The notes under the pieces: model-generated
Told to the model about the DNA's origin: nothing
The model's database searches: none
What the model saw: only the letters and a program-made list of their open reading frames with translations
NCBI GenBank assembly: GCA_905178155.1
Contig: CAJINV010000001.1
Span: forward strand, 6,605,860-6,669,859
DNA from: Amoebophrya sp. A120
Taxonomy: Eukaryota > Protista > Dinoflagellata
Direction: 5' to 3'
DNA length: 64,000 bases
Translations under genes and position numbers: made by a program
Shown here: positions 13,901-59,100 of the stretch, in pieces
How the letters are laid out: each line of letters starts with the position of its first letter
Numbering within the stretch: the first letter of the stretch is position 1

Positions 13901-16169
13901 CGTCCCGGAAAGGACGAAAGGCTTCTGTGGCACGTAACCCACGCTCGAAAATGCTGAATCGCGACCGCCTTTCTTCCAGTTGTACCGAACTTTCCCCTTT
14001 CTCCTCACCATGCTCCCTAGGAGCGACAGAAGCAAACTTGTTTTGCCACACCCAGTACTCCCAACCACGGCGACCAGATTGCCTCTGCGAACGTCAAAGC
14101 TCAGGTTGCGGAGCAGGAACTCCGTAGTCCCTGATCCAGATGTTGATGCTGTCACAGCAACTTCAGGGCTTGACGGAGCGCCTTTGTTGTCTTTATCATC
14201 TTCGGCAGGATGCCAGGAAAAAGAAGCGTCGACAACTTTTACCAAAACAGCTTCGTCAGCCGACAGAATTTCTGCAGTGCCTGCTGAACTCGGTTCCTGG
14301 TACCGCTGAAAATCCTCCTGGTCCGGACTTTGTCGCAAGTAGGAATCCAACCGTTGCATGATCACCTTCCAGGTGAAGATCGAGTTCACACAGTTCGGTA
14401 AGCTTCCGATCGGTAACCGCAAGCTCATGAACGCCGTGATCGTTGCAAATACGTTCGCTGCCGTCAACCGGTCCCCGCGCAGGGCCATCAGGACGAACGT
14501 CGCGCAAGCAGCCATCGCCGGCGCGTTGCGCCCGAAAGCCATGCAGGCGACCTGCCAGAACCGAAAGCGGAGAATTTCCCGAAGCTCCTGTTTCCGCTTG
14601 TTGAACAAAAGCTGCAGGTAATTTTCCTCCCAGGTCAAGTACTTCACTTGCTGAATCCCCGCTACCATCTCCCGCATGGTTGTCAGCCTGGAATCCGCGA
14701 TGGCAGTTTCCTTTCTCACAATCGGCGCCATAATGCTGCGAGAAACTTTTGTGGAAAACACAACGTACCCGAACATGAACAGCATGCCGACTAGTGCGGG
14801 AAAGCCGACGAGGTAGAGAAGCCCGGCAATTCCGCCAACGATGCCGACGAGACTGGCGACGAAACTGAAGAGGCCCATCCGCAAATCATCACACACACGC
14901 AGAAGGTCGTTGCCAACGAGAGTCAGTTCGTTAGTACTCGACGCCGCAGGTGGTGAACCTGCGCCTGCCGGTGCTTTTGCAGTTGTCCCTGGTGAAGTAG
15001 TGGAAGTAGGCTGATTCACAAGCTGCTTCGTTGCCGCGCAGCGCGTGTGGCGCATGACTTTCAAGTGCACGACCGGAATGACCCAGGCGAGAAAGGCGCG
15101 GACAAAATGCGCCTGCAACAGCTGTCTCACCTGCACGATCAGGACACCCTCGGAGATCAGCACGACGGTGAAAATGCACAAGAGGATGATCAGCTCAGTG
15201 GTCTTGGTCGCTGGGTTATCGAAAGAAAAAAGTGTTACAGTTACACATTGTGTTGCAGGCCAAGCAAGACAGAGCAGCTCTGTCATGCCGGATATGCATA
15301 AGAAGCTTCGTTTCATAGGTGTGTTCCCTTAGGATTTCTGCATTGCAAGTTTTCTCCCTCCTGCAGAAAAATTTGTGTTGCTGAATTGACAACACGTGTG
15401 TAACTGTAACACTTTTTTCGTGGGATATGGGTCCATGGACGCATCCACGACGAGCTTCAGCAGCACCGGACGGGCTATATCAAATGTAAAAATGTTTGGG
15501 CCTGGAAGGTTGGAGCTTGTGATGCTAACTCTGGACTCCAAAAAAATCTGTAATGCATGATCAGCAAGAGGAGTCTAGTTTGTGCTACGCGGGGAGGGCA
15601 TTTGTCATGCGGATTAGGCATCCAGAAGCCCTCGAAAAATCTGTGATGCTAGGTCATGCATTATAGACATTCTGGGCCATGCAAAATCTGCATGTCAAAC
15701 CCAGCAACATTCCAGACTGACCCAGACATTTTTACATTTGATATGCCAGATTCGTAAGCAACCCCTGGATCACCGACAGGATGAACCAGGTGACTAGATG
15801 TCTGCGTCCCCGGAGCCATACTTCGTTCCAGAGCGCCGATTGTTTACCGTCGGTTTGTCCTCCTGCTGGCGCTTCGAGTTTCGCCAGAATTTCGTCTGCA
15901 AGAAACGGAGCGGCTCGCTTTGACGTGGTAGTAGATGACGTTGCATCTTCTTCCGCTGTCGCAGTGCCAATTGTGATTGCCTCGGCGGAGTACCGTCTGA
16001 ACTTCGGTATTTCGGTGACCAACCGCTCGGGGTTCGTTGTTAAACGCAGAAAAGGCACAATCCATGCGAGCGTCAGGCCGGAGAAAAATCCCGGCCCACC
16101 TCCTAGTGCAGGAGTGACTGATGAAGGGATAGCACCCTTGATCTGCAAGTCCGGTTTCGCGTTCGTCAT
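10955..16169 (-). CDS. ABCC/MRP-type ABC transporter, tandem paralog with two introners
   Basis: Highly similar to 5537..10318. Exons ~16169-15744, 15477-15428 and 15216-10955 give LTNLARPVLLKLVVDASMDPATKTTEL, colinear with the paralog's LTNLARPVLLKLVVDASMDEATETSEL. Start ATG (MTNAK) inferred. Confidence 0.93.
15217..15427. mobile_element. Introner/MITE (211 bp), TATC...GATA ends
   Basis: TIR TATCnnAnGAAAAAAGTGTTACAGTTACACA at both ends. Perfect TSD TGGGT (15212-15216, 15428-15432). Absent from the paralog. Confidence 0.93.
15478..15743. mobile_element. Introner/MITE family A (266 bp)
   Basis: TIR TATCAAATGTAAAAATGTyTGGGyCTGGAA. Imperfect TSD GGCTA/TGCCA. Absent from the paralog. Confidence 0.92.
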
Positions 16170-16786
16170 CGTTGAAATGAAGGTTTTCAATAGGCTGGAA
16201 GACACTACTTACGCAAGACAGCTAGATTTTTTTCAAATGCATGCAGCTGTGACACAAGCTGCACTTGGCCGCCACATGGCTTCTTCAATAACTCTCGCAT
16301 TCAAGATCAAGACCCCACTCGTTCTTGTTCCCTCGTCACCCGTTTTACTTTTACTTAAGTTTACCATGCCCCGGGGAAGACTGCCGTCCTCTTTCGCACA
16401 CCGGCGCTGCGGGCTGCGGACCGCCAGAGCAGAGTTACAACTTCCACGAAACATGATAAACGCAAGTGGATGCTGTTAAAAACTCAGACTCATTTCTGCA
16501 GAAAGTTAATTTCATATCATGTTCTTGAAACAATAACAAACCATCAGAAACTTACCTTGCCCGGCTCCAGCTTGCTGCTCCTTAATTCTTGATTGCTTTC
16601 TTTGTGTTTTTCAGAGTGGATGTATCAACCTCTTGTGCGCCATCTTCTTGTCCTCGATTGACGACTCTTTAGTGCATGTGCGACGGAACTCAGATCAAAG
16701 CCAACAAGGAGAAGAGCTCTGGCTTCATTGATTTCGTGAAAAGCCACGCCGTTCAAGCTTCGTAGTTGCAAGAAGGTTGATTTTTG

Positions 16787-19700
16787 TCAAAAGCAAACAA
16801 TGCGACTATCCTTTCGTCGTCGTCTTGCGAAGAAAGACACGACTTCGTCGAAAACATCCGAACGACTTACCGGTGAGACCGCAGCTCCGGTTGAATCTTT
16901 GCTGGAGAAGTGGGTGTGGGCCGGTGGTGCCTGCTTTTCGTACGAGGGTTTCTCCGCACCTCCTTCGAGCGCCGTTTGCGCCCTCATCTCCTTCATGTAC
17001 TCGGCACACGCTTTGAACATGTCCTCGTCACTGCGATCATTCCCAATGCACAAACAGAAGCAGAACTTCAGCGACTCCGGAATCTTGTTGCCATTCGCAT
17101 CGAAGGCGACGCTGCTTCGGGGGCCGGAAATGCGGAATGCGTCTTGGTCTACTCCTGCCGCGGTTCTACTAGAGGATCCTGCGGAGGTGGTTTTCGCGAG
17201 AGAAGCTTGGTCGCTTTCTGCAGACGGCTGCACGATTGGTGTGCTGAAAAAGAACTTCGTCAGAGCCGCGCCTTTACTCACGCCCTTCAACCCCACCTGC
17301 ACGTACGTGTTGCCGTTTTCGATGGAGACCCCGGTGTATTGTCCGAGATAGTCCTCGAGCTGCTTCACCAGATTCTGAGCCTGCTGCTTCCCGAACATGG
17401 GTTCGCACCCGCCGAAGTGCCAGTAGATGCAGCTCCCGCTCTCCTCCACAAACGCACCCTGGGTGCGTTTCGCGAACGTGCTCATCAAGACCTTGGCGAT
17501 CCGTTGCCACCTTTGATTGTTCTCGATAAGAAGGTTGTTGTTGATGCAAGCCCACCGCAGATCGATGTTGACGTCCTCGACCTGGGCGTACCAATAGCCG
17601 TCTTCCGCGATAATGTGCAACCCCTGCACCTTGTGGAAAAAGCTCTCCAGCTGCTCGCGACTGCGCCCGCTGCAGACGATCACGGTGTTCTCCTTCTGGG
17701 CGCACATCTTCTGCAAGCATCGGACCAGGCCCTGGTGGATCGGGTCCAACCTGATTAATGTATAGTACAGTGAGTCGGAAAAATGAAAATCAGCATAGCC
17801 ATTAACAGGTCGAGTTCGAAATGAATAGACAAAGAGAAAGAGCAAGCAGCAATGCTAAAAAACATCGAAGAAGAACAAAATACGCCGTCCTAAATTCCTC
17901 CGTAAACTGGTAGTTCGTTTCCATGAGACTGTAGCTCAATCCACGAAACACCAGCGCTGCGTCCATATCGAATATCAGCAGCCTTCCATGCCGTCTCCTG
18001 TGCCATTCCTTCGCGCAACTGTGGTACCGTTCCTGCACCACCTTTGGGTTCAAAATCGACGTCCACGACTGCAGCAACACCTCCTGATACGGTTGCTCCT
18101 GCGAGCGCGCGAACCGCGCCGGCATCGGCAGGGGCGCAGTTGTCTCGCTACCGTGCTGCTCCTCGAAGCAAAGCTCGGTTAAGAAGTCGGACAGCCACTG
18201 GGATAAGGAAAGGGAAGAGACGTAGTTGAAGTCCTGCGCAAACCGTTCGTACCGATCCGCGTCCAACATGTTCATGGCAGAATCCATCTGCTGACAAATG
18301 TTCGGCGTGGACCAGGGATTCACACGCAAAGCACCGATCAGCGCCCGACTCGCGCCGCTGAACTCGGACAAAATTACCGCACAGTTCTCGTAGTTGCTGC
18401 GCTGTTGACCAGACGGGTTGTTCAAGTTCGTCTTGCTCGACTGCCCACTCCCACCGCCCCCGTACTGGTCCCTTTCATTCGACACAGCGGTACCCCCGGC
18501 CGACCCGCCAGCCGGTTTCTCCTTCGAGTTTTGATTTGACGACTGGTGCGGGTCGGTCTGCTGCTGCATCAGTGCCGCGGAGTTCTGCCCGTGAATCATG
18601 ATGAACTTGAATGCGGCGATGTTCAAGCCATTTTTCGTACACGTGTCGATGTAGATGTTTGCGGTCTGCAAAACCTGAAACGCCGTGGTGTCGTTGATCT
18701 GTCCAATTTGCAAATGGATGTGGTACCCAAATCGCTCGTTGATTTCCCGCGCACATTGACAAACCTCGTGCTCGAGCCGCGGCGTGTCGTCGAAAGTGAC
18801 ACTTGGCGGGTAATAGCAGTACTGCACTAGGAGGAACTTGTTGTGGTGCTGCGGGTAATTTTCCAGGAAATACCGGAACGCCTGCATTTTGTTCGTCAAC
18901 CCAGCGAAGCGCTCGATGCAGTCCACGCTTCCGAAGATGATCTTCGATTTGTGGTCGGCGGGTAAATCTGCGACGATCGAAGTTCCCGCCAACCGCGAGG
19001 GCGACATGGGACTCATGGGAACGGCGCCCGCCGCTGCGCTTCCAGTTCCCGCACTGCCCCTAGCGCTGCTGACGGTGCCGTGGTAGTGCGTGGACATGAC
19101 GTGCGAGCCTTGGGGCTGCTGCTGGGCCGTGACGGCGCTGCTGCGGTATCCTGAGCAAAAACGTACCCACACCAGAGTCAAGATGGTAAATCTGCTAGAC
19201 AAATCAACCAGCTTTGGCTGTTTCGCATGACAAGTTTGTCCTTGTAATGTAATCCTGTTTAGGTAGTTCAGCAGCATCACAGGTCTAGCATATCATGCTG
19301 ATTATAGCATCACAAATCCCAAAACACGATTAGAAAATGCCTTTCATGGGGCTCAGCGTGAGAAACTTTTTTGGCGTGCAGATTTGTATTACAACTCTGG
19401 TGTGGGTACGTTTTTACTCAGGATATGCGGCCGCCCTGCATCACGTTGCGGAACGTGTTGGGGAAGTGTTCCATATGGCGTTCTCAAACGTTACATTCTC
19501 AACTGTTACATGAAATTTGTCATGCAAGAATGGTAAAGTGTAAGTGAAAGGGAAAATGTTGCGCCTTTTGCATTACAGGTTTGGAGTAGATTGTAATGCT
19601 ATGTAGCGCGTCAAGAAGTTGTCATGCGGAGAAGGCTTGATCGTGTTAAGAGCGATAGTGATTTTGCACCTAGAATACCAAGACGCCACAAAAACCTCGA

Positions 19701-22700
19701 GGAACCATCCACAACCAAGAACCTTGGAAAAGTGGGGTCCCCGAAGTCCTGGAGGTGAGATGCGAGGGGGACGCCTATTAGCTAAAGCACTAAAAATAGC
19801 ACTAAAGCAGAGGCACAAGGAAGCGGAGTAGTCAGAAATTAACTTGGAGCCGTCCTTACGGAGGACTCCAGCAACCTCAGTCCACCACTGCCCTCGCATT
19901 CACAAAAGCAACAACACAAGAGTGTCGAAGCAACACCGGACGTCCATCCCACCGAAAGCACCACGGCAACTAAGAGCTGTCACACAATAGCACCAACGAT
20001 GAGGCAATGCCCTGGGGGGACCAGAAAAGAGGAATCCTCCCCATAATGTCTAAGAGCAGACCGCACACGTCAAGTAGTTTCAGCTCTTAGAAACAGGCTG
20101 ACGCCGTGAAAACAAGTGATTTTGCATGACAAATCATGTAACAGTTGAGAATGTAACAATTGAGAATCCCATATTCCATCACCGCGCCTTTGGTGCCCGG
20201 CGGTCCGGGCTGGGTCAAGCCACCCACACCGACCTCCGGGTCTGTGTCACTACGGCGGTATTTGTCCCGGGCCTGGCGCCCGCGCTCGCCCGGCTGGAGC
20301 AGCTGTCCGTCGGCACCGCTGACTTGCCGCTCGATCGCAAATTCCCGGTCGGGGAACATACTGTCAAAAGCGGAGTTGTTGTTGCCGCTCTCGTTGTAGC
20401 TGGAGCCCCAGGCCGCCATCAAATCGTTCTCGCGGTAGTCCATAATATCCGCCGGGTCGGATAAACTTGCCGTTGAGGACTCCGGCTGGTTCTGCTGGCT
20501 CGCACGGTACAAGTGGTCCGGCCGACCAACGACGACGGTCAATGAGCCGGGGTCATTCGACTTCCCGTAATTCGCGGGTAAGCACAAGTGTTTTGACGAC
20601 AGCTGCGTCGATTTGCCGTTGTGCTCGAGGGTGAGAAAACCGCCCATTTTGAACACGTGCTGTACGCCGAGCAGGCGGGTGCAGGCGGTGAGAAAGTGTC
20701 TCGAGTAGTCGAAGATCTGGAAGCCGACGAGGTCAAACGCCAGCATGCCGCGAAGCAAGTCGTTCCGGACTGGTAAGCACTTGAGCAAATCCGAGCTCGG
20801 CCAAGGGACGTGCACGTACAGCCCCGTCTTCACCTGCAGCGGGGCCGTTTGACCGCCGCCGGCACGCCGCGATGCGGATAATTTCCCTGATTCCATCTGC
20901 GGCGAGCCGCTGCCCCGCGCGCTCACGCCCGCTTTCGGCGACGCCAGGCTTTCGTTGTCCCCTGCGGTATGCGTCCGATCGCGGGTCCGGGCAATGAAGG
21001 CGTGCTGGTGCACGTACTTACCCAACATCAGCAACTGCCAGTCCTGCGCCCACACAATGTCGCCGGACCGCACCTTCTTGCTGCGCATCAACGTTTCCGC
21101 CCACTTCTCGTTGGCCTTTTTGTACGCATCCCAGTCCTCCTTGGCGAAATCTTTAACCTGCTGCCCCATGTGCGTGGCGGATTGGGGCATGAAGATACTG
21201 AAGTTGTGCGTGATCGGCCACAAGTAGCTGTAGCAGAAGGACTGGAACTTCTTCCAAATCTCCTTCTCCACAAACACCGGAATGCAGTCCTGCTCGAGGA
21301 ACAGACCAGTCAGATTCTCCTTCTGCGCACCGGTCAAAGGGAGGTTGTTAGAAAAGATTTTTGGCGACCCGACGAAGTACAGCCGGTACTGTTTCGCCAA
21401 TTCGTGTCTCGTTTTGTACAATGCGAAGATCATGCTGTCGTTTTCCTCTGGCAAAGGAACTAGCAGTGGCGTATCCGCCTCGTAGTGGACGCACAGCGTA
21501 TCATGAGGAAAAATGCCCCCTCCCCATATCGAAACGAAGTTTCTGATGCTGGATTTCCATACACAAATCAGATTTGTCTTGCAGTAGAGGAGTGCACGCA
21601 TGCGGCAAGCCTCAGCCGAGAGGTTTGACGTAGGCGCCTAGCATGACAAACGTGTATGCTCTGAGCCAAACAGCATCACAAACCGCCTGAAAAATGCGGA
21701 ACGCTTTCTGGACTTGCCCTCTTGCAAGACAGGCAGGATTTGAGGTCACAAATGCGCATCACAAATTTTCAGACGGATACGTTTTCGATATGGGGAGGGG
21801 GGATTTTTCTTTTTGATATAGCGGAAGACAGTGCGCGCAGATGAAAACGTTGTGGATTTTTCCATTCGGCGTGCGCGAGTTATCAAATGCAAAAATGTCT
21901 GGGTCTGGAAGAATACAAACTTGTGATGCGCATTTCAGAACACAGAAAAATCTCTCATGCATAGGTAGCAAAAGCTGCCCACTTTCTGTCACCAAAATGG
22001 GGGATTTGTAATGCGGATTCGGCATTGCGGAAGCTTCTCGAGACCTGTGATGCTAGAGCTTCCATGCCAGGCCTTATGTGTCATGCAAAAACAGCATGAC
22101 TCTTCCAGACCCAGACACTTTTACATTTGATACGAGTTGTTCGGGTGCAGTTTTGCGAGCTGCGAAAGCAGCGCGGACTCCTTTTGCACGATGTTGTATT
22201 TCGGCTCGTTCTGCGCGACCATGCTGTCGAGTAGAACTTCATTATTCCGCTGCTCCCCCGCCTGCAGAAAGCCGCGCGTCTGTCCGCCGTCGTCCTCCTG
22301 CACCATTTCCAAACCGGTGGGAACTAGGTAGTAATTCTGCTCCCGAAGCCACCGCAGATTTTTCAAATTGCTCGCTGCTGCACCTGCGGAAACGCCCAGT
22401 CCGGAGGGGTTCGCGTTGTGTCCCGATGTTGGGGTCATCATCCCGGTGAGACTATCAGCCACCTCCTGTAAAACCGGCGAGATCAGAGACGTCAATGCGC
22501 TGGTCAAGGGCTCTTGTGGGTTTTGCAGTTGTGCGTTCATCGCGAGCAGCGTTGGCGGCGAATTATTCGCCCTTGGATTCTGCAAATTGTTCCCCTCTGG
22601 CGATGACGGCAACGAATGTTGTACCACATCCGCCCGATCGGAGACTTGCACATGATGCTGAGTCGTGGGAGACGTAGCGCTTTGTCCAACGGCAGAAGAC

Positions 22701-24495: not shown

Positions 24496-24521
24496 ATCAT
24501 CATCATCATCATCATCATCAT
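24496..24521. repeat. (ATC)n microsatellite
   Basis: About 8 tandem ATC units. Confidence 0.9.
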
Positions 24522-24741
24522 TCTCGTGCTTGTCCATTGACATTCGTGTAAATTATCTTTTCTTATTCCTCTTCAGAGTGGACGTGCACGCGATCACCGT
24601 CTTTTGACAATCAAGACGTCGCTATTCCGCCACCCAGGTACCGTCCCGGTGGCGTTAGAAAAGAAATTAATTTACATAATACAAACGTTCCTGCTAGGTC
24701 AACAAAGATGTTTTTCTTTTAACCGTTGTTGTACTTAATAG

Positions 24742-26052: not shown

Positions 26053-26054
26053 GT

Positions 26055-26817: not shown

Positions 26818-29800
26818 ATTGCTTTTATCGTCCACGCACCACCCACGGACCCAGCTAGGTCCACAGCAAGAATCCCCGCTACCCGGTGGCGCAAATCCTC
26901 GTCTGGGATCGGGTAAAGTCCGAGCAGCCAATCTACTCCAGGGAGAACCTCGAAAATCAAGAGCAACAGCACGAAGAGGTACAAAACCCACGTGTTGCGC
27001 AAGGGTTTGTTCTCCGTAAATGCCACGAGAAAGGGGCGGCCACTGTAATTCGCCAAGAAGTTTGCCAACTGATTCACCTGGATGCAGAAGAACAGCACGG
27101 TGCCGCGCAACGTCGGCACGAATTCTGCATTTACTGGTATACCGTACGCAGTCCGGAGCTTCGGAAAGTTAAAAAGCTGCGAACTTGGTGAAGAAACTTG
27201 TTCAGGTACTATCTCTGCGTTCTCAACAGCTGCAGCTTTTCGGAGAGTAGAATTTGCGCTATTATACGCATCTACTTCCGCCAGTGCCCAGAAGATGCAG
27301 CTCAAGTGGCACACAGTCTGCAGTCCCATGCTCGCCCAGGACGCCGGATGGGATAAATTTGCGACCGGTCGCTGACGCGTGAGCGGCCCAACGCTGCTCC
27401 GGCTGATCAGGAAGAACAAGGAGGAAATGAATAAACTCTCGAGCAGTGCCTGTGCTTCACTGGTTCGCGTCCCGTCCAGCGTGACGAGGCTCAATCCACA
27501 GGCCAGAACGACACTGTTGACACCCATAATCTGGTACATTTGCAGAGTCACGCAACAGGCACCGCGGCCGGCCTGCAGCAACTTCGTGACGCACTGGATC
27601 GTTTCTCCACGGTAGGTGAAAGGGCTTGCGATTGACGCCTCGCCGAGCTGGGCAGTGGCAGAGCCGCCGGGTTTGTTTGATGAGCTCGAGCCTGCACCGC
27701 CACCTGCCATCAAATCTTGTTCGTCGATAGGCAAGAAGTCCTCCGCAGCAATACCCAGCGGATTCATATCACCAGCGTCGTCCGCCTCGGAAGCGGAAGG
27801 GGACGAGGCGGGTGGTTGACTTTTCCCTTTCTTGGAGCCCGCTGGTACCTTTTTCGAACGGGACCTCGGGAAAAATTCACCCTTTTCCGTTGAAGTGGAT
27901 AGCAGCGAAATTCCCACGTGTGCGCGCTTCAACGCGCCGACATCATTCAAACCGTCGCCGTATCAAATGCAAAGTGTCTGGGTCTGGAAAAGTGTGATGC
28001 TGTTTGTGCATGACACAGAAGGTCTAGCATGCAAGTTCTAGCAGCACAGGTTTTGAGCAGGTTAGGCGATGCCTAATCCGCATGACAAGTTCCCTCTTTT
28101 GGTGGCAAGAAGTGAGCAACTTATGCGGTCCATGCATGACAGATTTTTTTCTGGTCTCAAATACGCATAAGAAGTTTACATGTTTCCAGACCCAGACACT
28201 TTTGCATTTGATACGCCGATCATCAGGGTGATCTCGCCAGATGCGGAAAAATCATCCAGCAAGGCTTTTTTGCAGTCTGGCGTTGCGCGGGCGAAAACGG
28301 AGACATGCGGAAAGACTTTCCTCCTCCAGCTAGAGAAGTTGAAGGTACCAGTACTGCTCGCATGTAACGTTCGAAACCGGCCCAAGTCCGCGAACGAAAC
28401 GCAAAGTGCCATCGATCCGGCCTTTAGGTTCTTCAGCACTCGTTTCTCGTCCAGAGATTCACCATCAGCAGAAGAAGAATCAATTTTCCCCGCGGCCGAG
28501 CCGCCTTCGAGTCGTCGCCAGCGAACTTTGAGGCTTTTGCTCTCAACAGCGTTTGCTTGTTTATTTCCGTCCACGGTCGTGGTTTGATCAACGTGATCCG
28601 CACTATTTGAAGGATAGATGGGCGTCACGAAATCCGCATCCTGCGGCACCATCCCGCATTCTTGCGCCACATGGCAGGCAGTGGCCAGCGCGTCTCCAGT
28701 GATCATGACACACTTGTGGTCGCAGTTCTGCAACTCTCGAATGGTCTTCTTCGTGTGAGGCTTCAGGTTCGACCGCAGGGCCAGGAAGCCGGCAAACTGC
28801 AGGTTCGAATCTTCGACATCCGCGCGCTCAAAAAGACTGTCAACATTCGAGCCATTTGGTTTATTTTTCTCAACTAACAAATTTGCAACTTTTGGATTCT
28901 TCTTTACTTCGGCACTCATATCCTTCCACGCGAGGGCCAACACTCGCAACCCGTGGTGCGTCAGTCTCGTCGCTTCGCGCTCGTACGCACTTGCTTCGGA
29001 TGAGTTTTTGAAGCAGATGCGAGACCGCAGCATTTCTGGCGAGCCTTTGACAAACGCGTAGACAAAAGGGGGGGATTGTCCAGCTCCTGCGCGAGATTTG
29101 CTTGTGGTGACTGGCATTTTTGCGGCGACAACGGACATGCGCTGTAATTCCGATTGAAACGGAAACCGCTCAAGAATTTTCAACCGATTCGTGCTTGGAC
29201 CAGCAGCGCTATCCTCGGCTTGCTCTTGCACAACTGTTGGAAGCCAACCGGATGTTGAGGATGCGCCTGCGCCTGCAGGTGCTCCCTCATCGAACTTCCA
29301 GCCCGCGTACTCAAAAGCCGCCTGCTCTGCGGGGTCTCCTATGATCTCGCTTGCGCATTCGTCCACTGGCTCGCTGTCTTCTCCTGGTTGCAACATGCGC
29401 CCAATGAGTCCTGGGATCTGCCGCGACTGCTGCAGCAACTTCTTCGCAAGGCCTTGAGTGCTTGATTTTGACTGTTGCTTTTTTCCTCGTTTCAGCAACA
29501 AGGAGTGACAGGCGCCCAAGACAAAATCTGCGTGCAGCTCACTTCCCATGGAGGGGGTACCTTTCATTTGCTTCGAGTCCTTTGCTGACACCCCAGGTCC
29601 ATTCACCTCCTCGTCCTTTACAGGAACTTCAGTTACCACCGAATCGACAGTGTACTTGCTACTTGTCAAAGTGCCGGTCTTGTCGAAGCAGCAAGTTGTT
29701 ACGCGTCCGGCGTACTGGAAACGATGTGGCTCGGTGCAGAAGATGCGCAGCTTGTGCAGCGCGAACAGAAACAGCGAGGTGACAAAGGACAGAGTCGTTG

Positions 29801-45697: not shown

Positions 45698-48056
45698 TCA
45701 TTCGTGTTTGACTCCGTGGTACGTTTTTATCTTTTGGATGAGATCGGTCTTCTTCCCGTCCACCCGAAGGCCTACTGACTTGAGAAATTGCTTCAGGAAC
45801 GTGACTTTCATAAACTCTAGCTGGTTTTGCTGCACGGCCCGGGCCATTTGCTCCGCAGTAATCACCGGCTCCGCTGGAGACGCTGCGGCCGTCCCCGAGT
45901 CGAGCTTTTGGCGCTTGCTGCCCGCACCGCTGCTCGCTTTCGCTGCCTTCGAAGCAGCAACAGGCGCGGGCTGGTCGCAAATGGCCAGCAGTTCCGCGGC
46001 GGGTTTGCTTTTCTCCAGCGTGTCGAGTAGCATCAGCATTCCCGCGTCCGCAAAACAGTCGGGATCGGGTCGCAGCTCGTCGACCACTGGCTCGACCTCT
46101 GCCTCGCCGAGCGCGAGTGCCTGCAACGCCGCGTAGTGCTTCTGGATGGATACATTTGCCACGTCCGCCGTGTGGAAGGAGTCCAGGCAAATGCGGTTCA
46201 GCAAATGCCGCATCGCCATGCACGTGTTGGGAGCGTCTAATTCCGGTTCGCGCTTCGTATCTAACACCGGCACTGCCGTCTCCTTACGGTAGTCCTCCTT
46301 GTGCGGGAGTGGAATCAGGTTGAAAACGTCCTGATCCTCCGAAGCTATCAATGCAGACAACCGCGGCTCGGCGTTCGCCCGGGCCCGAAACCAGACCAGC
46401 ATCATCACGTTGCGCTTGCGCAGCGACGTGAGCAACGACTTGAAGAGTGCGGTGCTTCCAATAATCCGCTTCTCGTTGGGATAAACGAGGTAGGAGTGGG
46501 TGTAGTGGTGGTACGGCTTCAACTCTTTCCTGTCCAAAAACCCGATCAGCTCCATACAGGGTTCCTCGCCGAAATTCCGCAGCTTCTTGATCTCCTCGTC
46601 GGTGAAGGGAATTTTCTCACCCGCGAACTCCACATACGAAGCGAGCTCCGCGTCCCGCACGTGGTGGGTTACGGGTTGGTGATCCCCTGTTAGGTTCAAT
46701 TTTCCTCCTGGTGACTGCTGGTGGACGAGGCTGCTAGCATTCGGGTCTACTTTCGAAGAGGAGCTCGAGCTGCCGCCCGTCCCGACGATCGGGAAGTTGG
46801 TTTGCCCGGCCATGTCTTTGGTAACGGAGCCGACCGTGAAGGGCGCGCTCATCCCGTCGTCGTTCATGTCGGTCTTCAAGTAGTCAATGCGCTCCACGAG
46901 CTTCTGCTCGGCGATGACGCGGCCGTTGTCCACCGCGTGAAGCCAAACGGGAGGAGGGAGCTTCGCTTCCAGGATGTTAATGTACACAGAAACGCCCAGC
47001 GCCACGTCCGGATCCCGTTTCAGGTACAAGATCGTCCGTGTCAACGCCCGCTTCTTGAACAACCGCTTGCGGATGCGCGACTCGAGGCTCCGGAAGTTGC
47101 GCTGACCTGTTGTGTGTAGGTTTGGGACAAGCATGATGCTGTAGGTGTACGTCATGAAGAAAAGTTCTGGAAACACAGTAACAGTTTTAACAGTCGCGCT
47201 TTCGGATATTGAAGCATGTTGAAATTCACCTACTTATACCATCCTCACTCTCCGCAGTCACAATGTCCATGTTGCTACTTTTCGCCGCGTTTGGGCTGGT
47301 ATCTATCCGCGCCAGCGCGAGTTCGTCTGCCTCATCGATGTTTTCCGGCGATATCACCTTGTTCCAGAACAAGTCCAGCGAAAAAGGCCTATTGGCGCGC
47401 ACCACCGGGTAAAACTCGATTTCGAGCCCCAGGTCCTGGCAGTCGCTGACCCGCGTCAATGTGATGTCCAGTGTGGTCTGCAGGTCGCGGAGCCGAGCGG
47501 CGTCCGTCTCGCCCCGCTGACCCAGCGGATCGTCGTTGCCACTGAAGACCATCACACGACGCTTGAACGTCAGCGTTTCCCCGATTTGCAACTTGAACAT
47601 CTGTGATGCGTTCCAGAACACCTCGGCCATGACCGCGCCGGACGTGCGCCCACCCCGCTCCAATCGCCCATACCGCGTGTACTTGTCGTCGCGGATCTGC
47701 TTCACCAGCTCCGTGCCCGGCTCCTCGAAGTCGTGCAGTGTGAGGATTCCCGGGAAATTGCTGTAGTTCTTCGCGTTCTTCGTGTTGTATTTCACAATCG
47801 CGATGCGGTCATCCTTACTGGCGATAATTTTGTGGCGGACGAAACTTTCGAGGGAGCAAAACACCTCTTCGTGAAGCATATTGTCAAACTCCAGGTCCGC
47901 GTCGACCAGGAGCAGCGTGGCCTCCTTCGAAGGCTCATACCGATCTTCAAGGATGGCTTGCTCCTCGTCGACCGTAGTGTTGGGCTTGTCATCGTCGAAA
48001 AGGCCGTCGGCGTCGAAGATATCCTGGTCGTCATCTATCTCGTTGAAGAAATCCAT
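45698..48056 (-). CDS. KU70: Ku70 (NHEJ DNA end-binding protein)
   Basis: vWA domain (EATLLLVD, DRIAIVKYNT, RRVMVFSGNDDP), core (LIGF, VYPNE...IGSTALF, LIPLP, NVSIQKHY), C-terminal SAP (KVTFLKQFLKSVGL...GKKTDLI). GT-AG intron 47107-47239. Confidence 0.9.
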
Positions 48057-49020: not shown

Positions 49021-51596
49021 TTACCTTCTGCACTGTCGCTTTGGATCAACGTCTTGGTCTTCACACTCAACTTGCTCCTGTTCGTCCACGACATAATGAT
49101 CGCCCCCAACCATCTCAACCTCCATTGGCTGCTCATGCTCATGCTCATGCGCATCCGCATCATGCTGTTCTTCTTCCTCCTCTTCGTTCCCGTTGGCGAG
49201 AGCGCCATGCAGTTGCCCGTTTCCCGCTTCCGCATTCTCGTGCGGTTGGCTTTCAGACGATTCTGCCTCCCCGTCGTAGAACACTGATTCGATCTGCAGC
49301 TGACAGTTGGTTAGTCTCTCTTCCTGTTGCTTCAATTCTTCCCGCTTCTTCACGATCTTCGGATCTTCTTTTGCAGCTGATTTGATGATGGGGTTGTTGT
49401 GCAGGGTGTTTTGAATCCAAGATGTTCGAGAATGGAGGACGCCGTTTCTCGTGTGCTTCAAAATGCTGTCGACAAAAGTTTTCGCCTCGCAGTTGAAATT
49501 GGCCTTCACGGCTTTGTGGATCTTCTGCTTGCAGTTCTCGTCCATTTCGGCGCTGCTTTGCTTGAAGGCGTACTCTTTCTTCGCAGCGCCGATAGTCTGC
49601 ATCACATCATCCACGTTCTTCAAATCGTTCCATTTTCCCGTGAGGCTCTGGCTGATCATTTTCTCCAGTGCTTCTGGAATTGCTTCCATCGCTCCAAAAG
49701 ACGCGTCGAAATAACTGTTCGCCGTACCGAACTCCGCCTCCAGGTCAAGTGCGTCGGTGCAGCTCTTGTTAAAGCGGACAGAGGTCACATCGACATTTTT
49801 GCCGGCCTCGGTAATTACTGCGCTGATCAAGCGGCCCGGTAGGGGAGTTACCGTTGGACAGGTCAGCAGTTTCTTCGTAGAAGTTGTTGCGATTTGCTTC
49901 ACATCTTTCATGTACTCCTGGAGGATGGGTCGCCATTCATCCCGGATGCGCCGAAGGCAGTCTTCAAAAACTTCTCGACCTTGGAAGACGGGACACTCGA
50001 AAGCGTTCGTGCCGAAACTCTCCGTCGTCCATTCGAACGTCAAAAGCTCCTCCTTCGCGTGCGCGCCCTCTTTGAATTTCGCAAATGCTGCTGTACTCAA
50101 CTTTTGCTGGACGTTTGTCGAACCGCTCAGCAGTATCGTCTTGACTGCCATGATCAGCTCTTGGTCGCTTTGCGGTTCTCGCCCGATTTTTTCCAGTGCT
50201 CTTTTGCACTCAGCTAACCGCAGACGAATGCTCGTCGCCAGTGCGGGGATGTGTGTCGCGATGAGGTTTGCGAACAACGGCTGGACACGTTCGCGGAAAC
50301 GGATGACCCCAACGCGCTCCTTGGGCAGATTCAACCCAACAAGCATCTCCTCCTCGCGGGTTTCCTCCATCGGCCCTTCCCCACCTTTCACGAAATTGAT
50401 CACGGCGTGCCGCCCCAGGTCGTTCCCGTTGTCCCAATCTTCACAAATCTGTATTGTTGCATCTATTTGTTTCCCCGACCATGCTGGTCCTGCATCGAAG
50501 GGAGAAAAAAAAAGCAGAGCATCAGCATAGTTAAAGATTTAGATTTTTACAATGAATCAGCAGCAACATGAACATGATCTGTTGCTGTTCTATACCCAAT
50601 CCCGGGCACGTCTCTCCGCGTCGATGGAATCGAACAAATCAAACTTGCTCAGTACATGGAGCGTTCGCGCTCCATGCTTATCGAACTCGCGAGCGACTTG
50701 GAGCGCTTCGATGTTATCCTCGGTCTCCTTGGCTTCGGAAACGATGCAGATTAGCGTCTCCTTCTTCTGCACATGCTTCTTCACCAAGGCTTCGACTTGG
50801 CTCTTCAGCCCTTCACTCTTTCCCTCGTTTTGCACGAACCCGGGTAAATCCACCAGAGTCAGGTCGCAGACTCCTGGTCCTTCTACCAGAACTTTTATCT
50901 CACCGCTGACGATCTGCTTCACGGAGGAAACGTCGTCAGGTGCTAAATGCGGAAACTCGTCCATCAGCAGCTCGTTCTGCCTTTCGGAGATTTTTTCTGC
51001 AATCTCGTCCGCACCACATTCTACGTATTTCTTGTTTCGGTCACTGATGTAGAATTTCAGCGCATTTGCTTGCTTCGAGGAACCTGATGAACACGCTGTC
51101 GCCGGCTCTGCTTCCGTACAAGAACTTGCGTCGTCCCGTCGTGTACAGTTCACGACAATGGCAGCCTTCGTGCACATTTCCGCGTCCTGCGGAAATGGCA
51201 CCCCTGGAATGAGGTTTTGTTTCCCCTTTGCTCCAAATCCAACATGCCAAACATACTACTGCAAGAATAAAGCTTCGGGCTGTCATGACTTCGCGCACAA
51301 TCAGGGCGCACTTCGGATTGGTGAATCTGATGGAGAACATCAACAACAACATGGAAAAAACTATAGCAAAATACTGCACGCACAAAATGACGCAGCAACA
51401 ACATAGATAGCGCTATGTCTGTACCGGTCAACCTCGACAGAAAGGACGATTTTCCGGCGCTCGTAGCTCCGATTACGCAAATCTGCGGCAACTGGAGCTC
51501 GTCCTTGGCCAGGGCGTCATCGCGAATTTGGCGAACGACCCGCAGGTGCTCGACATATTGTCCGTTCGCCTCCACAGCACCAGCGAACGTTGTCAT
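49021..51596 (-). CDS. Dynamin-superfamily (Mx/DRP-like) GTPase
   Basis: LPQICVIGATSAGKSS (G1), MCT (G2), LTLVDLPG (G3), SKFD (G4). GT-AG introns 51204-51424 and 50449-50595. GED-like C-terminal helix. Confidence 0.88.
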
Positions 51597-52687
51597 TGCC
51601 GCGAATTGCCTGCTCGGGATGCTTCTTGAAGTTGTTCCGTCGGGTGCAACAGGTTCAGCTCAGCTTGTTCTTACCTTCGTCCCTTGGACAATTTACAGGG
51701 ATACTGCACTCGTTGTACTGCACACGTCGCAATCGCAATCCTATCCGCTAGGAATGGCTTCTGGTTGTAATTATGTCTGTAACTGTCACTGCATAAGTCA
51801 ATCACACAACATGAAAAAATCTTTGAACATTGTACATGGGGTAGTAAGTAATCGATATGTTTCGTATCTCTCTTTTATCTGATCGGTAATCATGGAGCTC
51901 TTCTTGCATCTACCTGACTTTTGGTGAAGACGCAGATAGGAGCGCGATTGGATCCTAGTGGGAAGAAAATAGCAGAAAACTCTTCGAGTTTAGAAACAAG
52001 AGAATGATTTGTGTCGCAGCAAAACGAATTACCCCACGATGTAACCGCCGTCGGTCACCCCAGGCCATCAGTAGGAAAAAAACCTGACGATAGCTGGTCA
52101 ACAGCTCGCGAGGAAAAAAATGAAACCCAGCTCTCAAAAAAAAGCGACTAGTAAGGATCGCACTCGTCAGAACCACACCGACTGTATTTTGTACATCGGC
52201 ATGGATATCCCGGACCCTCATCGATTTCATCCTCTAGCACAACGATGACGGTATTCTACGCAGCATGAACTTAAAGCACGACTTCGGGACGAATACGAAA
52301 CTAAAAGCGATGTCGTCTTGCTTTTACTGCCGATCCTCCAGAACTCGGTCTTTTAGTTATAACCTGAAGAACACTTTTTCGCCCTCACATAAGATAGAAC
52401 TCGAACCGCACAGGATTTGCGTTGGTTGATGATCGTTGTGCGTGTAACACGTGTCGTCTTAAATATGAAGCCAAAAATATCCTACTTTCAGCAATGAATA
52501 TGGTGTCGCTTGTATGAAAATTGTCTATAGACATGACAAATGGCGAACATTGCGATCCAACTTGGTTGCTTTGCCAGGCGCGAACAAGCAGAAACCGCAT
52601 GTGAGAAGTCTAAATTCCTCTTCTTGATTCGCCGTGTTGAGACCTAATTCGATTTCGAATGAAAATCACATCGCTATCGGTTCCTTC

Positions 52688-55031
52688 CTACAGCAAGACC
52701 AGGCCGACTTCTTCGGATTTCAATTTCGGCATGCGGTAGTTGAACAGGTAATACTGCAGGTAGCCGTCGCCGCGACCGAATTTCAGTTCGGTTAAAAACT
52801 CGCTGTTGTCCATGACGTCGAGGGCGTTAAAGACGTCGAAGTCGTTCAGTCGCGCCTGGATCAGGGCCTCTGTCATTAACTGCGGCCACGTACACGTTGT
52901 TGCAACATTCAGGTAGGAATACGCCGCGTTTAGGGTTTTGTGCCTGTGGGAAGGGTTTCAGTTTGACAAAGTACTTATTTGCTTGGTTCGCGCGGCCGTA
53001 TCTCAATCTGATAATGACAACGAAACGGTTTAGTTTCTGATTGGATGATTCTGTTCAGCATTGCAACACATCAAAAGAAAAATTTACTTTTCGTGTCCCA
53101 ACACCGATGATGGCAGGTTGTAGAAGGAGAAGACGTCGGTAACTTTTCCCTGCTTTTGCTCGCGCACATACGCGTAAATCACCTTGTCCCTGGGCAAGAT
53201 CCAGTGTCCGACCTCGGACTTGTCGAGGCAGGGGTAGAGCTTGAACTTTGCGAGGTATTCCGCCAGCAATTTCTGCACCTGCGGAATGTCGCGCTCCTCC
53301 ATTTTTCGGAAGCCGTCCAGTTGATGCTGACCCGGGAGCGCCATCAACTTGATGTAGCGAGACATGGTCATGCGCTGCGGCAAGTGCGAAAACTGGCACT
53401 CGATCAGCTTCTTCGGGTTCAGGTTACGGTGGTGGTACCTGATATGATTTTGCGGCTCAAGTCTCATGCCTGGTGTCGTGCCGTAGATATGCAACGAGTA
53501 CTTTTGAAACACCAGAGAAAAAATCCAACAAACAATGAACAAAATGAAATAAGCAATTCGTGCTTTCGATATGATCCCAGGATGTCGCTCACCTGCAGGA
53601 CGCGACAGGCTTTGGTAGCACTACTCCGGCGGTATAAGCCGCCTGCCAAACGCCCTCCAAATTCACTCGCCTTGTGACCTCCTTGATCAATACAGGGGCC
53701 ATGCGTTTCGATCGCAGCTTCTTGTGGACACACAAAAAGTTGATTTCCGCGACCTGTTGAGTTCAGTTAGATGGATCTTAAAAATCTTTAGCTTTACATG
53801 ACATTCGCATTTCTGTTTTGGTAAAGCAAGACACGCAACTACATCAAAGAACTTCAACTTGTGGTAAAATTTTAATGCAATTTGCACAATACCTCAACTG
53901 GCTTCCCACAGACCTGCATTTTCGCAGGGATTCCAGAAATGAACGCGACGAACTTCTTCGTGGCCTTCACCCGGCAGGCAATGTGCCAGTGCTTTCGGTA
54001 GTGCGGGGGTGTGGTCGCCCATCTCAGAAACTCACGACTGTAGTCGAAACGGAAAGTGCCTGGTGTTGAGATAGGTTTTGTTCTTCAATCGCCACGCTAC
54101 TTACGCCCTGGTTTTTACAGGCAAGGTCAGGGAGGAAGGTCCCACATAGAGCGTGAGCCACATAAACTTTCATGTTCATCTTCAAAAACTTAAGGTAAAA
54201 ACAACTTCAAAACTTTTTTTACTGTCGTCGTCCTCCACGTAATTCTGGGACAGCAGCGTATACACTTCGTCAGCCTGTTTTGTCATGCCGAATTTGCTTC
54301 CTCCCTACTTCTCAAGTATTTCTTGTTCTATTTTGTTACCAATACCAGGTGCATGGTACATGATATAGAAAAAGACCCGCTGCCGTTGCAAAGTAAAGAT
54401 AAAGACTGAAACTGCGAGAGATGATTCAAATGCAGCATGAGGAACGCAAAGTACGTCAGCTTCGTCCATGATGTCCACCGTGTACCACTCGAAGGATTCG
54501 GGTAGAGGCAGTGGCGTTTTTCGCACGTCGCTCACGTTCTGCTCCTGCAGCGGCCCAGTTTCGCCATCCGCTGCGAGGTCTTCCTCGGCTAGCTTCGGAA
54601 CCTGGAAAAATGATGGAACAGCTTGGCGGGTGGAAAACTATTGTACTAGTAGAGCGACAAGGCAAGAAACCATCCTGGTACCGTGCAAGTAACCGAACCC
54701 GAAGACCTTTGCAAACAAAAACAACATTCTATACTGGTTGCGTATCCCAAAATGCGTGCGGCTTGTCTTTTGGTGCCTCTCGAGACTCCGCGCAGACCCT
54801 CCTTTTTGGCTGTTGCTGCAGGGAAAGCATCTGGAGCATTTTTGCCGCCGCGTCGGGCCCCATTTCCTCCTGCGCTTTCGCCAAGAGGTTCAGCACCTCA
54901 GCGCTGGCCCCTGGTGGAGCCGCAACGGCCGGTGCATTTTCCTTCGAGTCGGTTACGGCGCTCTCGGGCGTGTCTTTCGACGCGGCACCGGCGGTCGCAT
55001 TTTGATCAAGGGTGTCGCTGGCGGGAGGCAT
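52688..55031 (-). CDS. NMT: Glycylpeptide N-myristoyltransferase
   Basis: [71 protein letters not shown]-terminal VGLVLL. About six canonical GT-AG introns. Confidence 0.95.
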
Positions 55032-56178
55032 GGTTTGGTACTTGTTTCGGGCACTGGGGCTAGCTACACACTATCCGAACAGGCAACAAAACTGAAAGTA
55101 TGTTCCAAACTCTCAGCGTTGAAAAGTTCCTTAAGCCGAGGCCGCAAACTCAAAAAGTCAAATGGCTATGTTGATATCAAAGTAAGTAAATGTCGAATTA
55201 TATGTCGCTGAATCTTTGTCGTTGACCTTGTTGCTGTGCAGGAAGATTTGGCCTTTCTTTACAGGGGCAATGCCATGGACTTTTTCCTTGGCCTTCAAGC
55301 AATAGGTCGTTTCGTTGCTGAATCGCGCGATCATCCTGCTGATCACGTGTTGTCAGTGTTGGGCCACGTCGAGTGATCTTGGTGAGCAACACTAGACTGA
55401 TCTTTTTTTCGAACAATGAGAAAAATTGTAGCTGCTTACGAAAGCTCACGAGGACAACGGCCTACATCTTAAATTTGAAAACGGCAGTACAGATTCATTA
55501 AGGACCAGGCAAGTGCAGCAACAAGCCGCTTTGCATCAGTCTCTACCGGTCGATTGATTTCTTTTTGCACAGAGACTCCAGGAACCACAAATTAGTTCAG
55601 CAACGAAAAGGTTGAGGGTAGTCCGGGTAGAGGAGAAACATTTTTGGTGAAAAGTAGTGCTGCTCGTGGTAGGTTGGTGAAAGGTGCGACGTTGCGGCAG
55701 GCAGGTGTAAAAGTAGTTTCTATTTGTAGTTGTAGCCCTGAGCTGCATCAGAACTGTGTAATGTACAAGTCTAAGCTCCTGAAGCATTCCGTTCCGCTTC
55801 GCGCGCGGTTCTTCTTTGTCTTTTAAAAAAACCGACAGGCCATAACACTTTATGGTCCTTTGCAATTGCAGCCAGGTGGATTAGAAGCCAAGCTTAACTA
55901 GCATCACCGTCTGATCTTTGCCCAACACAGGACATGAGTCAGAAGATGAAGGTCAAGGTGGATGATCGAATATTGCAAAATGAGTCAAGTTTGCGTGTGA
56001 GTAGTACTTCACCAAAAGAAATGGGCACTACACTCTGATGATTGTTTTTTAGATATTTGGTTTTGGTCTATCTGTCAGTATGCGAGCAAGTACTTTGATG
56101 CTCAGAACCTACTTACCCCAGGCTCTCTGCTCTTCCTCGTTGCGCTAGCTCCTGCTAGAAGCTGCACCATCGCCTTCG

Positions 56179-59100
56179 TCAGTCCTCTTCCTTCTTGTCA
56201 GCCACATTTGCTGCGTCTACGGCCGCCTCTATCTCCGCAACTGCCGCAGCTTCGGCGTCCACGGGGGATGGAGCGGCGATAGCGGGCAGGGACGCACTGG
56301 CCTCCCCTTGTTGTTCCCCTAGTGAGCCGTCCGCGATGGCCTCGGGAATGCCCGCCAGCTGCTGTTTTCTCCTCTTTTCTAGAATGGCCTCCCGGGCTGG
56401 CGCGTCCATGAGTTTGACCAACATTGGTTTGTCGGCCGTGACCTCGTCTGTGTCCTTGTTGTGGTACAGGATATTGCCGCTCATACCTGGAGTAGCGTGG
56501 CGAGAAGCCGTTTGGGTTTGTGAAGACACATGACGAGGACATATCACTACACTACAATGTGCTTCTTGTTGTGCAAACTATAAAGTTGCTGAAAAAGAAG
56601 AAGTGAAAAAGAAGAACTGAATGCACCTGGAACGAAAGTCCACTCTTCGTCGAGGAAAGGCTCCAGATCCCGCACGTTGTCTTTCACGGTGGTGTTGACT
56701 TCTCGTAGTCTATCCTGCTTCCCCATGACGTGCTCTTGGAGCGTGTAGAGCATTCGTCGGATCTGATGTGAAATTGCTGGATTAAATTGCATCTGCGTTC
56801 ATGATACGTACACGTAGTCATGGAAGATTAGTACAAACAAGAACAACTAAATGCTGGCTGCACTCAATTATTCTCATTTTTGGTACGGCCAAAACAACAA
56901 CAAGCGTCTGAATCAATCAGCAAAAGCAAACGAGGCGCAAACAATTTTCATCATCTTGATCTTCAGTACTTCTTGCAATTGCTCCGTCAAGTCTGCGAAC
57001 TCGAACTTCATGGTGTACTTGAGAAACTGCTCGGGTTCCAGGTTTTTTGCGTCGTCGAGGGACTGCTGAATGCACTTGGCCATCAGGTACAGGGCCTGCG
57101 GGCCGTCCAGCCCGCAGCGATCAATCAAGAAATCGCGCTCGATCATCCCGTATGGATTGGAAAAATGTCTGGGTCTGGAAGGTTGGAACTTGTAATGCTA
57201 ACTTTCCATACCTAGAAAATCTGTATTGCGTAACCAACAAAAGTCGCAGCCTCTTTTGTCATGCAAAAACGCAGTTTCTCATGCGGATTTCCTATGAGAA
57301 AGCGTTTTGGGAAGTTATCATGCCGGACTGCATTCGGAAGTGTTTTTATCATGCACATTTTAGCATCACAAGTTTCCAGACCCAGTCATTTTTACATTTG
57401 ATATCCCGTTCGCGAAATCCCCCTGGAAGCTGGTTTCTAAATTCGTCACCGCCCAGGGGATATCAAATGTAAAAATGTGTGGGTCTGGAAACTTGTGATG
57501 CTGGGTGGCGTCTCATGATGAGGCTACAAATGATGGCTCAGCATGAGAAGTTTCTGAGCTCCTAGGTGTTGCCTATTCTGCATGACAAACTGCGCTTCTG
57601 CATCACACAAAAACGCAGCTCTTGGGTAACGTGCATGACAGATTTAAGAGTCATGCCAGACAAGCATGACAAACATGAATTCTTCCAGACCCAGACATTT
57701 TTACAGTTGATAGGAGGTCTCGGCGCTGTCCGACCGCGCCCGGGCCATCTTGAGGCGGACCTGACGCACGTCATTTGGGATGGGGTCCAGCCCCTGCTCC
57801 TCGAGCGCTTCGTTTTCTTCCCGTATCTTCTGCTCCTCCGAATAAAACTCGTCGCGGTCCACGAACTCTTTCAAACGGTCGTAGATCACTTCGTAGTTGA
57901 TCTGCCGTCGCTTGCCCGACATCGCGTTATGACTGTGCACAACTCCCCCACCCCTCATTTGTCATGTAAAATCCCAAACCCAGTCGCTGCCCCGTGGCAC
58001 TGTTTGCATGACAAATTTCGAAAGCCCAAACAGTACTACAGCAAGTGCATAAATTTGCCATGCACAGGCTCCAGGGTCGCTGGCGTTCGTATTGCTGTCC
58101 ATGCAATACAAATGAGGGGGAGGGGGAGCTTTGCACTGTCATACGCGTCCGTGGACTGCGACTGGGACATCAGCGTGTCGGTGAATATGTCCTTATCCAG
58201 GAAAAAACACCCATCCCCATCCATTTTTTGCATGACAAACAGTGGACTTTACGCATGTTTTGCATGACAAATTGGATCGGGATGGGTGTTTTTTCCTGGA
58301 TAGTCCTTCACCTGCTGGAAGATGGTGTGCGCGCCGCGGAAGTTGGTGTGGTGCAGCACCCCCATGTATTTGTCGTACACGAGGGCAGTGAGTAAATTCA
58401 GCACGAGGAAAACCAAAATGATGATGAAGGAGAAGAACCACAGACTCGCGATCAGTGGAGTGATCCGGTAAATCTTGTCGTAGTCGAAATCCCCGTACAC
58501 GATCTTCAAAGTCACGCCCATGGCCTTCAGCAGCGTGTTCCACTCCTCCAGCTGGGAGCCAAAGAGGATCCAACCGCCCATGCTGTAGTTCACGTACACG
58601 AGGAAAAAGACGATCAGGAAATGCAGCATGTCGTAACTGGCGTTCACCAAACTGAGCCCCATAATCGCAATGCGCGGCTGGCCGCGGAATCCCTTGAAAA
58701 AACGCATTATGATCAGCATGGAGTAGATATCCCACAGAAAAAACAAAAAGCAGGCAGGGCATATTTGTAATGCAAAAATAGATACACAGAGAAATCTGCC
58801 ATGCCTGGCCCCATAGCATGCTGTTTAGGATATGCAGTACACATTTTTTTATGTATTTATTTTTGCAATACAAATATGACGTGCCAGCTTTTTTCTGTGT
58901 GATAGTAGAAAAACCCCAAAAGCTGCACCATTTTGCGCCGGGCCTCGATATCGTCGCTCAAAGCGAAAAGCTCCAGGTTGCTGTCGTAATACGGCGTCAA
59001 ACCCGTTCCGACGCTTCCAAATTGTCCGGTACCGACAGCGCGCTGAATAGCTTGCGGCCCTGAAAAGTCGAAGTTTGCAAGAAATCGATCTTTCCTGCTT

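Follow-up and report, generated by a model that had tools for sequence, protein, structure and literature searches.

TAT-ended introners of Amoebophrya sp. A120 share a conserved, regularly spaced internal word

The dinoflagellate Amoebophrya sp. A120 harbors tens of thousands of repeated non-canonical introns in 1,954 separate families (Farhat et al. 2021, PMC7789003; this and the other papers are cited from the parts covered). The inverted-repeat (IR) motifs of these introners are described there as TAT, seven less-conserved bases, and then at least three A. The elements are flanked by direct repeats of 3–5 nt (5 bp in the legend of Fig. S19), their non-canonical splice sites lie 1–5 nt from the IR (legend of Fig. 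S23), and U1 snRNA was undetected in Amoebophrya. Gozashti et al. 2025 (PMC12130899; 50/58 A120 rows of Dataset S2) list most A120 families as "TIR DNA, Unknown" (TIR, terminal inverted repeat) and a single one, family 38, as "Ginger, 5-bp TSD, TA/TA Termini" (TSD, target-site duplication). Here we analyzed a 64,000-nt stretch of A120 contig CAJINV010000001.1 (hereafter, the window), whose Ku70 open reading frame (ORF; 45698–47233) encodes a product 100% identical across 92% of its length to an A120 protein. The window contains TAT...ATA elements that agree with the published introners in their TAT/A-run ends, 5-bp repeat, GT-AG-free removal, and repetition. They are introners of the miniature inverted-repeat kind, have TAT ends and a 5-bp target duplication, and lie in exons in either orientation; the element plus one duplication copy is absent from contigs that are likely RNA. 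The end grammar is already published (PMC7789003). What appears to be new is the phased word shared by the interiors, the uniformity of the 5-bp rule, and the testing that speaks against selection on RNA pairing.

TAT-ended introners and their removal

We located the elements with an end-agnostic inverted-repeat scan and a TAY-anchored scan. There are 12, 109–700 bp long and of eight TIR types, all in exons within 15217–58904 and in genes on the minus strand; one TIR type accounts for five of them (Table 1). An earlier note on this DNA had described at least eight TIR sequences starting TATC or TATG, most with an A-tract at about positions 10–15, and both points held. TATC or TATG begins 24/24 ends, and the A-run is present in most, being weak in 19474 and 57928 (elements are named by their first position) and at one end of 27961. 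The further statement that all elements make a 5-bp TSD stood for nine of the 12, where the duplication is perfect; at 15478, 21499, and 57461 it is imperfect. The longest element, 19474, belongs to a 235-bp family; two copies of a 12-mer (at 19657 and 20115) enclose its ∼458 additional bp. The extra sequence (19657–20126) is either an insertion with duplication or part of a longer ancestor of the short form.

Table 1. Introners of the window (positions and lengths in nucleotides of the window; joints are those of contig runs X3–X5)
Position	Length (bp)	Type and host gene	TSD	Octamers	Removal
15217..15427	211	TAT, 31-bp TIR; minus-strand ABC-transporter gene	5 bp, perfect	1	Joint 15211>15428 skips 216
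15478..15743	266	TAT, five-copy family	3/5	4 (V form)	Joint 15473>15745 skips 271, 2 ambiguous letters
19147..19425	279	TAT; trehalose-phosphate synthase gene	Perfect	3	Joint skips 284
19474..20173	700	TAT; six frames without Pfam match		5 (V form)	Joint skips 705
21499..21818	320	TAT	4/5	3	Joint 21494>21820 skips 325
21881..22132	252	TAT, five-copy family	Perfect	4 (V form)	Joint skips 257
27961..28213	253	TAT, five-copy family; P-type ATPase gene	Perfect	4	Removal +5 nt gives a 1911-aa frame
57151..57403	253	TAT, five-copy family; arms unlike at positions 4–10	Perfect	3 (V form)	
57461..57712	252	TAT, five-copy family	3/5	5	X3 contig piece begins at 57712
57928..58143	216	TAT	Perfect	1	X3 record 11 piece arithmetic
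58194..58302	109	TAT, near-palindromic	Perfect	2, 32 bp apart	X3 piece arithmetic
58728..58904	177	TAT	Perfect	Sole variant TGTAATGC	X3 piece arithmetic
2324..2896	573	TTAG...CTAA, control outside the finding	6 bp	0	Joint 2317>2897 skips 579 (X3, X4, X5)

We compared these elements with a metagenome set obtained by an exact scan with the commonest TIR, which returned 135 stretches of ∼330 estimated; these gave 133 loci and 519,872 bp after merging (L-numbered below), with the query TIR family over-sampled. The best BLAST matches between these loci and the window are the elements only, and all 12 window elements matched metagenome subfamilies or copies. Two calls longer than 1 kb were dropped, leaving 344 copies independent of the window, of which a coding model oriented 238 with confidence. 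Private-mutation rates were saturated and were kept out of the analysis.

The metagenome copies follow the same end rules. The largest class returned by an end-agnostic caller was TAT plus a 5-bp repeat (266 calls), and a flush 5-nt repeat was present in 256 of 333 strong-arm elements, a 6-nt repeat in none. Median element length was 261 bp, and the TIRs fell into 15 clusters. Position 2 was A in all except 4 of 654 homology-called ends; at position 3, T was dominant and C occurred in 9/654. Base 4 was C or G in 664/692 ends and agreed between the two arms in just 65%. AAA lay inside positions 10–16 in 620/688 ends and was mostly missing from 4 of the 15 clusters. The end layout is thus TAT(C/G), variable positions 5–8, an A-run at 10–15, and a family-specific block at 16–30. 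This last block differs between families, yet has a within-family identity of 0.83–0.98 (the two top values are biased by the search query), and a perfect 5-nt repeat at period 6 occurs in it in 20/42 consensus ends and in 6/12 families, with family-specific letters. This repeat might have arisen by slippage, form a tandem binding site, or be the footprint of an old excision; window examples lie at 15233–15244, 57476–57487, and 58210–58221. TSD bases were of random composition and favored neither GT nor AG (AG occupied downstream positions 3–4 in 14/201), and the oriented copies show that TAT families insert in both orientations. Among 327 oriented copies, one has lost the terminal T from its sense 5′ end and seven have lost it from the 3′ end (p=0.07), an asymmetry that would fit a requirement for U at intron position +2.

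Removal of the elements was read from assembled contigs. In contigs of runs X3–X5 (RNA by the tool's guess; one sample of one study), exons are joined at canonical introns and at six TAT elements; each of the latter six joints omits the element and 5 nt more, including those of two of the three imperfect-TSD elements. For 57928, 58194, and 58728, the same removal follows by arithmetic on the piece coordinates of X3 record 11. Run X1 passes straight through the canonical introns at 54000–57178 and therefore behaves as DNA, none of the exon–exon joints is present in X6, and the raw-read runs X13 and X14, with 5 and 0 reads over the region, leave it uncovered. Frames of 1588, 1602, 1911, and 447 codons open when each element is excised together with 5 nt and stay closed when it is excised with 4 or 6 nt. 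The imperfect duplications bound the sense-strand cut to after upstream TSD base 2–4 at 15478, 0–4 at 21499, and 3–5 at 57461 (the latter from a piece start); under a single rule, the cut would follow base 3 or base 4 of the upstream copy. A cut after base 4 would make the intron start N-T-A-T, which fits the NT starts that lead A120 table S4 (PMC7789003), a ranking that the choice of aligner may shape. With the cut at a fixed place in the TSD, distance from the TIR rather than GT/AG would determine where splicing occurs.

A conserved internal word and its spacing

The octamer TGT[C/G]ATGC occurs 30 times in the 3,288 bp of window elements (9.1/kb) and 5 times in the 60,712 bp outside them (0.08/kb). 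Whole-window shuffles yielded 5.2 ± 2.1 octamers (maximum 11), and 0/100 reached the observed 35; the count outside the elements is thus at chance level. In an unbiased 8-mer count, the octamer ranked top and was present in 11 of 12 window elements; 58728, the only one without a C/G form, bears TGTAATGC. The sites cited in the earlier note were all found (15518, 15603, and 15642, with five in 57461–57712 and two in 58194–58302), and the equal frequency in canonical introns or other DNA that would have undone its claim was not seen: seven canonical introns, set by contig joints and pieces, hold one octamer in 1,384 bp. The contrast recurs in the metagenome: called elements totaling 95,015 bp contain 942 octamers (9.9/kb), whereas the ∼388 kb outside them contains 87 (0.22/kb). 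With the query family left aside, the density is 8.3/kb, and 162/187 copies have at least one octamer. The density is 0.41/kb in low-GC metagenome DNA beyond recognized elements, where several of the clusters can be seen to be decayed elements.

Sequence context lengthens the octamer to RAAYYTGTVATGC, whose commonest variant is A>T at the fifth octamer base. Across six subfamilies, the motif core has an identity of 0.93–0.97 vs. 0.74–0.80 in the other interior columns, and motif divergence climbs with copy divergence (0.027, 0.041, and 0.055 by tercile; 299/420 copies). With the strict motif, same-orientation sites lie 31–33 bp apart, three turns of B-DNA, in 7/12 families, against a null mean of 1.3 (look-elsewhere p=0.005); the figure is 10/12 with a motif widened after variants were seen and 6/8 after possibly related families were merged (p=0.016). 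The first inward-reading sites cluster 33–34, 41–45, and 56–57 bp from the ends, with a 10.5-bp phase (R=0.60, p=0.006).

These data bear on whether the word has any present function or is what remains of the ∼32-bp tandem array of a single ancestor. Such descent is suggested by the colinear octamer positions in the five window copies of one family and by a weak colinear likeness in a few family pairs (z ∼6 for 2/199). Neutral decay, however, would not have spared the motif core relative to its neighboring columns. With the motif neutrally masked, the interiors of different TIR families fail to align (199 pairs, median z 0.2, 4 above 4), and yet spacer length is kept. We therefore regard a functionless relic as very unlikely.

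What might read the array

Several results favor a signal in DNA over one in RNA pairing. In the 238 oriented copies, octamer sites are 381 sense and 350 antisense, no host-strand bias, and the ratio beyond recognized elements is 52:47. The earlier note had proposed that the arms co-evolve under selection on pairing rather than sequence. This was not supported at the RNA level: sense-strand arm mismatches are G-U in 187 cases vs. A-C in 175 (217 copies, p=0.56), and same-copy arms exceed shuffled pairs by at most 0.05 identity (p<0.05 in 5/20 tests). Arm-to-arm identity at positions 4, 7, and 8 is only 0.57–0.65. Its other proposal, one trans-acting factor, is supported in the part that concerns shared trans-acting recognition of ends and motif, the motif being conserved, strand neutral, and helically arranged; positions 16–30, family specific yet conserved within families, would suit several sibling specificities as well as one factor.

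We consider it reasonably likely that a trans-acting DDE transposase, or a set of sibling enzymes, binds the RAAYYTGTVATGC array as phased sites in double-stranded DNA, and that the array is not a splice signal. Subterminal repeats of other miniature inverted-repeat transposable elements (MITEs) offer a precedent: in Emigrant/Lemi1, the transposase binds the subterminal repeats cooperatively (PMC1636448). The elements share their ends and have the 5-bp TSD at sites of random composition, and the array is kept within families, strand neutral, spaced at 31–33 bp, and provided with inward sites ∼33, 43, and 55 bp from the end. In the proposed mechanism, one or more DDE transposases would bind the TAT(C/G)/A-run end together with the array, and only copies keeping both would keep transposing. 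In contigs of one sample, the element plus 5 nt is removed; the three imperfect TSDs suggest that the cut follows upstream TSD base 3 or 4. The mobilizing enzyme would most likely be integrase-like, near IS3EU, GingerRoot, and Ginger2.

Several findings weigh against a transposase as reader of the array. Folding z-scores of the interiors range from −0.5 to −3.5 (11 elements, mean ∼−2.3) vs. +2.0 to −1.3 in seven canonical introns, and in copies with imperfect TSDs divergence rises less in the motif (0.027 to 0.031) than at TIR positions 16–30 (0.031 to 0.051); better-than-shuffle folding and smaller motif decay together leave room for host selection after insertion. The p-values for spacing and phase are optimistic, since families may share a remote ancestor and the tests are not fully independent. 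Several sibling specificities fit the family-specific and conserved block at 16–30 equally well, which counts against the transposase reading if it is taken to mean one specificity. The control for splicing without the octamer, described below, is a single element. No transposase and no DDE or integrase family was detected in the 23 ORFs of the window, in the 100 ORFs tested from 215 long ones in the metagenome loci, or in the 12 frames of two long inserts, which gave no Pfam match. Finally, PMC7789003, in the parts cited, reports finding no A120 transposase and contends that transposases do not generally mediate mobilization.

The folding (mean minimum free energy z of the interiors as above) and the slower decay of the motif than of the TIR in imperfect-TSD copies would both suit a splicing signal, acting in RNA or on DNA during transcription, that recruits machinery for GT/AG-free introns. 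The near-palindromic form of the extended word would let the signal work in either orientation. Some such signal must lie in the element, since the TSD bases have no GT or AG bias, and the undetected U1 snRNA (PMC7789003) points the same way. However, a TTAG...CTAA introner in the window (Table 1) is spliced with 6 nt despite having no octamer. It has a palindromic repeated word of its own, GTCANNTGAC, in five copies and nowhere else in the window; it has no homologue in the 133 metagenome loci, and its start, TTA, is similar to the A25-type motif of PMC7789003. The absence of sense bias within or beyond recognized elements, the absence of a G-U preference in the stem, the fit of the spacing to three B-DNA turns, and the fact that the motif does decay in more diverged copies also speak against an RNA signal, and we think a splicing role for the word unlikely.

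The DNA-level evidence of strand neutrality, conservation, and spacing would also serve for a host DNA-binding or architectural protein that binds the array and aids amplification or shields the element in chromatin, with a catalytic protein reading the ends only. Such a protein would account for one internal word across families that differ at positions 16–30 and for the lack of an annotated A120 transposase in PMC7789003. Against it, the motif is at chance in the non-element DNA of the window (5 vs. 5.2 expected), so that no other host use is visible there, and the TTAG element has a different array, as expected if each transposase has its own site. A host protein seems to us as unlikely as a splicing signal.

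We searched for the enzyme that a transposase reading of the array calls for. No autonomous TAT...ATA element was found in the 64-kb window or in 520 kb of metagenome loci, nor was the long element encoding a DDE transposase that the earlier note had envisaged. Candidates of 3,549 and 1,298 bp (L057:6074-9622 and L065:1903-3200) proved to be two short copies mispaired. A third, L043:5060-6030, was rejected; it is an introner with a poly-A-tailed insert and a ∼19-bp flanking duplication that includes an octamer, and it looks retroposed. To the eye, the 700-bp insert resembled a segment of an integrase, a likeness that had no Pfam backing at E≤1. Forty-two orphan ends look like decayed short copies, none traced to an ORF. 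The exact TIR had no match in IMG/VR. A one-site grammar gave 120 IMG/VR loci of ∼170 estimated, none with partner end and TSD, and a two-site grammar gave none in GTDB genomes or IMG/VR; this pattern recovers just 46/344 of the elements themselves. Rfam gave no match.

Other features were seen in passing. The ∼28 kb at window 29000–57000 has no called TAT introner, the others clustering at 15–28 and 57–59 kb. Two tandem minus-strand ABC-transporter genes occupy 5537–10342 and 10955–16208, and the second has two introners near its 5′ end. In the metagenome loci, L031:1261-1552 is a CAC...GTG element with a GC-rich 5-bp TSD and no octamer, whose removal with 5 nt leaves one open frame and whose ends we take to be Transib-like. 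Long-TIR elements of other types lie at L014:10524-11389 (no motif) and L061 ∼10690-11325 (one motif; merged-locus coordinates). In a metagenome relative, L010:591-2090 is an ORF for a C-5 cytosine DNA methylase (PF00145, E 1.7e-37).

One conserved phased internal word joins separately counted A120 families into a single system. The word provides a pull-down bait and a signature for an autonomous element. Random TSD composition and a bounded cut give a testable splicing rule: whichever way the element faces, the cut would fall within the duplication, a set number of bases from the TIR. Judging by the TTAG element, each end type may have its own internal word; if so, introner families could be sorted by mobilizing enzyme before the enzyme is found. 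A bolder view, which we hold to be very doubtful, is that a single undescribed lineage of integrase-like transposases (TAT..ATA, 5-bp TSD) carries all Amoebophrya TAT introners as passengers and reads a sequence-free ruler code (TAT(C/G), A-run, family-specific tandem hexamer, and three-turn-phased RAAYYTGTVATGC array), and that the same DNA- or RNA-bound complex marks the ends for splicing at fixed distances, replacing U1 and GT/AG.

Comparison with known systems

Arrays of sites at the ends occur in hAT, CACTA, Mu, and Tn7 elements, and hAT-type termini carry a purine at position 3. TAT elements have T there, rarely C; the 5-bp TSD of hAT5 (PMC12730594) fits them and the termini do not. The earlier note's likeness to IS3EU stood as to the termini: IS3EU/GingerRoot elements have TA..TA ends (TAYGG..CCRTA in rust IS3EU) and no strict target sequence (PMC10045372, PMC6839031, PMC12730594). 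It fell, as that note had already remarked, on the TSD, usually 6 bp in that group (PMC10045372), against 5 bp in 256/333 strong-arm metagenome elements and 6 bp in none, and membership therefore fails. GingerRoot TIRs are also longer, 100–150 bp compared with ∼30–55 bp. The 4- to 5-bp TSD of Ginger2/TDD fits (PMC10045372; PMC6839031 gives 6), whereas its TG..CA termini (PMC6839031) do not, position 2 being A in nearly all TAT ends. The Transib/CMCT clade has a 2- to 5-bp TSD and CA..TG termini (PMC12730594), unlike TAT..ATA.

As to earlier descriptions, the text and supplement terms of PMC7789003, figures and logos apart, mention no internal motif, spacing, or phase, state no uniform 5-bp rule that includes a fixed cut, and report neither a strand test nor a G-U test. 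No shared internal motif appears in the parts of PMC12130899 covered (one section, passages, and 50/58 A120 rows), and none is mentioned in the parts covered of PMC11282704, bioRxiv 10.1101/2020.10.14.339549, or PMC12501133. We found no report of the octamer or its spacing in the literature searched, most subscription journals and published logos being outside its reach.

Like the nonconventional introns of Euglena (PMC12501133), TAT elements are free of GT/AG and would be cut at a fixed distance from complementary end motifs. The Euglena code is N3CDG ... CH'GN5-6, and a purine follows the intron, whereas TAT elements read TAT...ATA, are cut inside the TSD, and show no flank preference. TAT elements also have the traits of MITEs, being short, with TIRs and a TSD, and with two long inserts lacking a Pfam match. 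Like the Emigrant/Lemi1 MITEs, they are short, non-autonomous TIR elements with repeated internal motifs near their ends (PMC1636448). Unlike in those MITEs, one motif is common to at least 12 TIR families that differ at positions 16–30, it recurs at 31–33 bp through the whole interior, and the element doubles as an intron.

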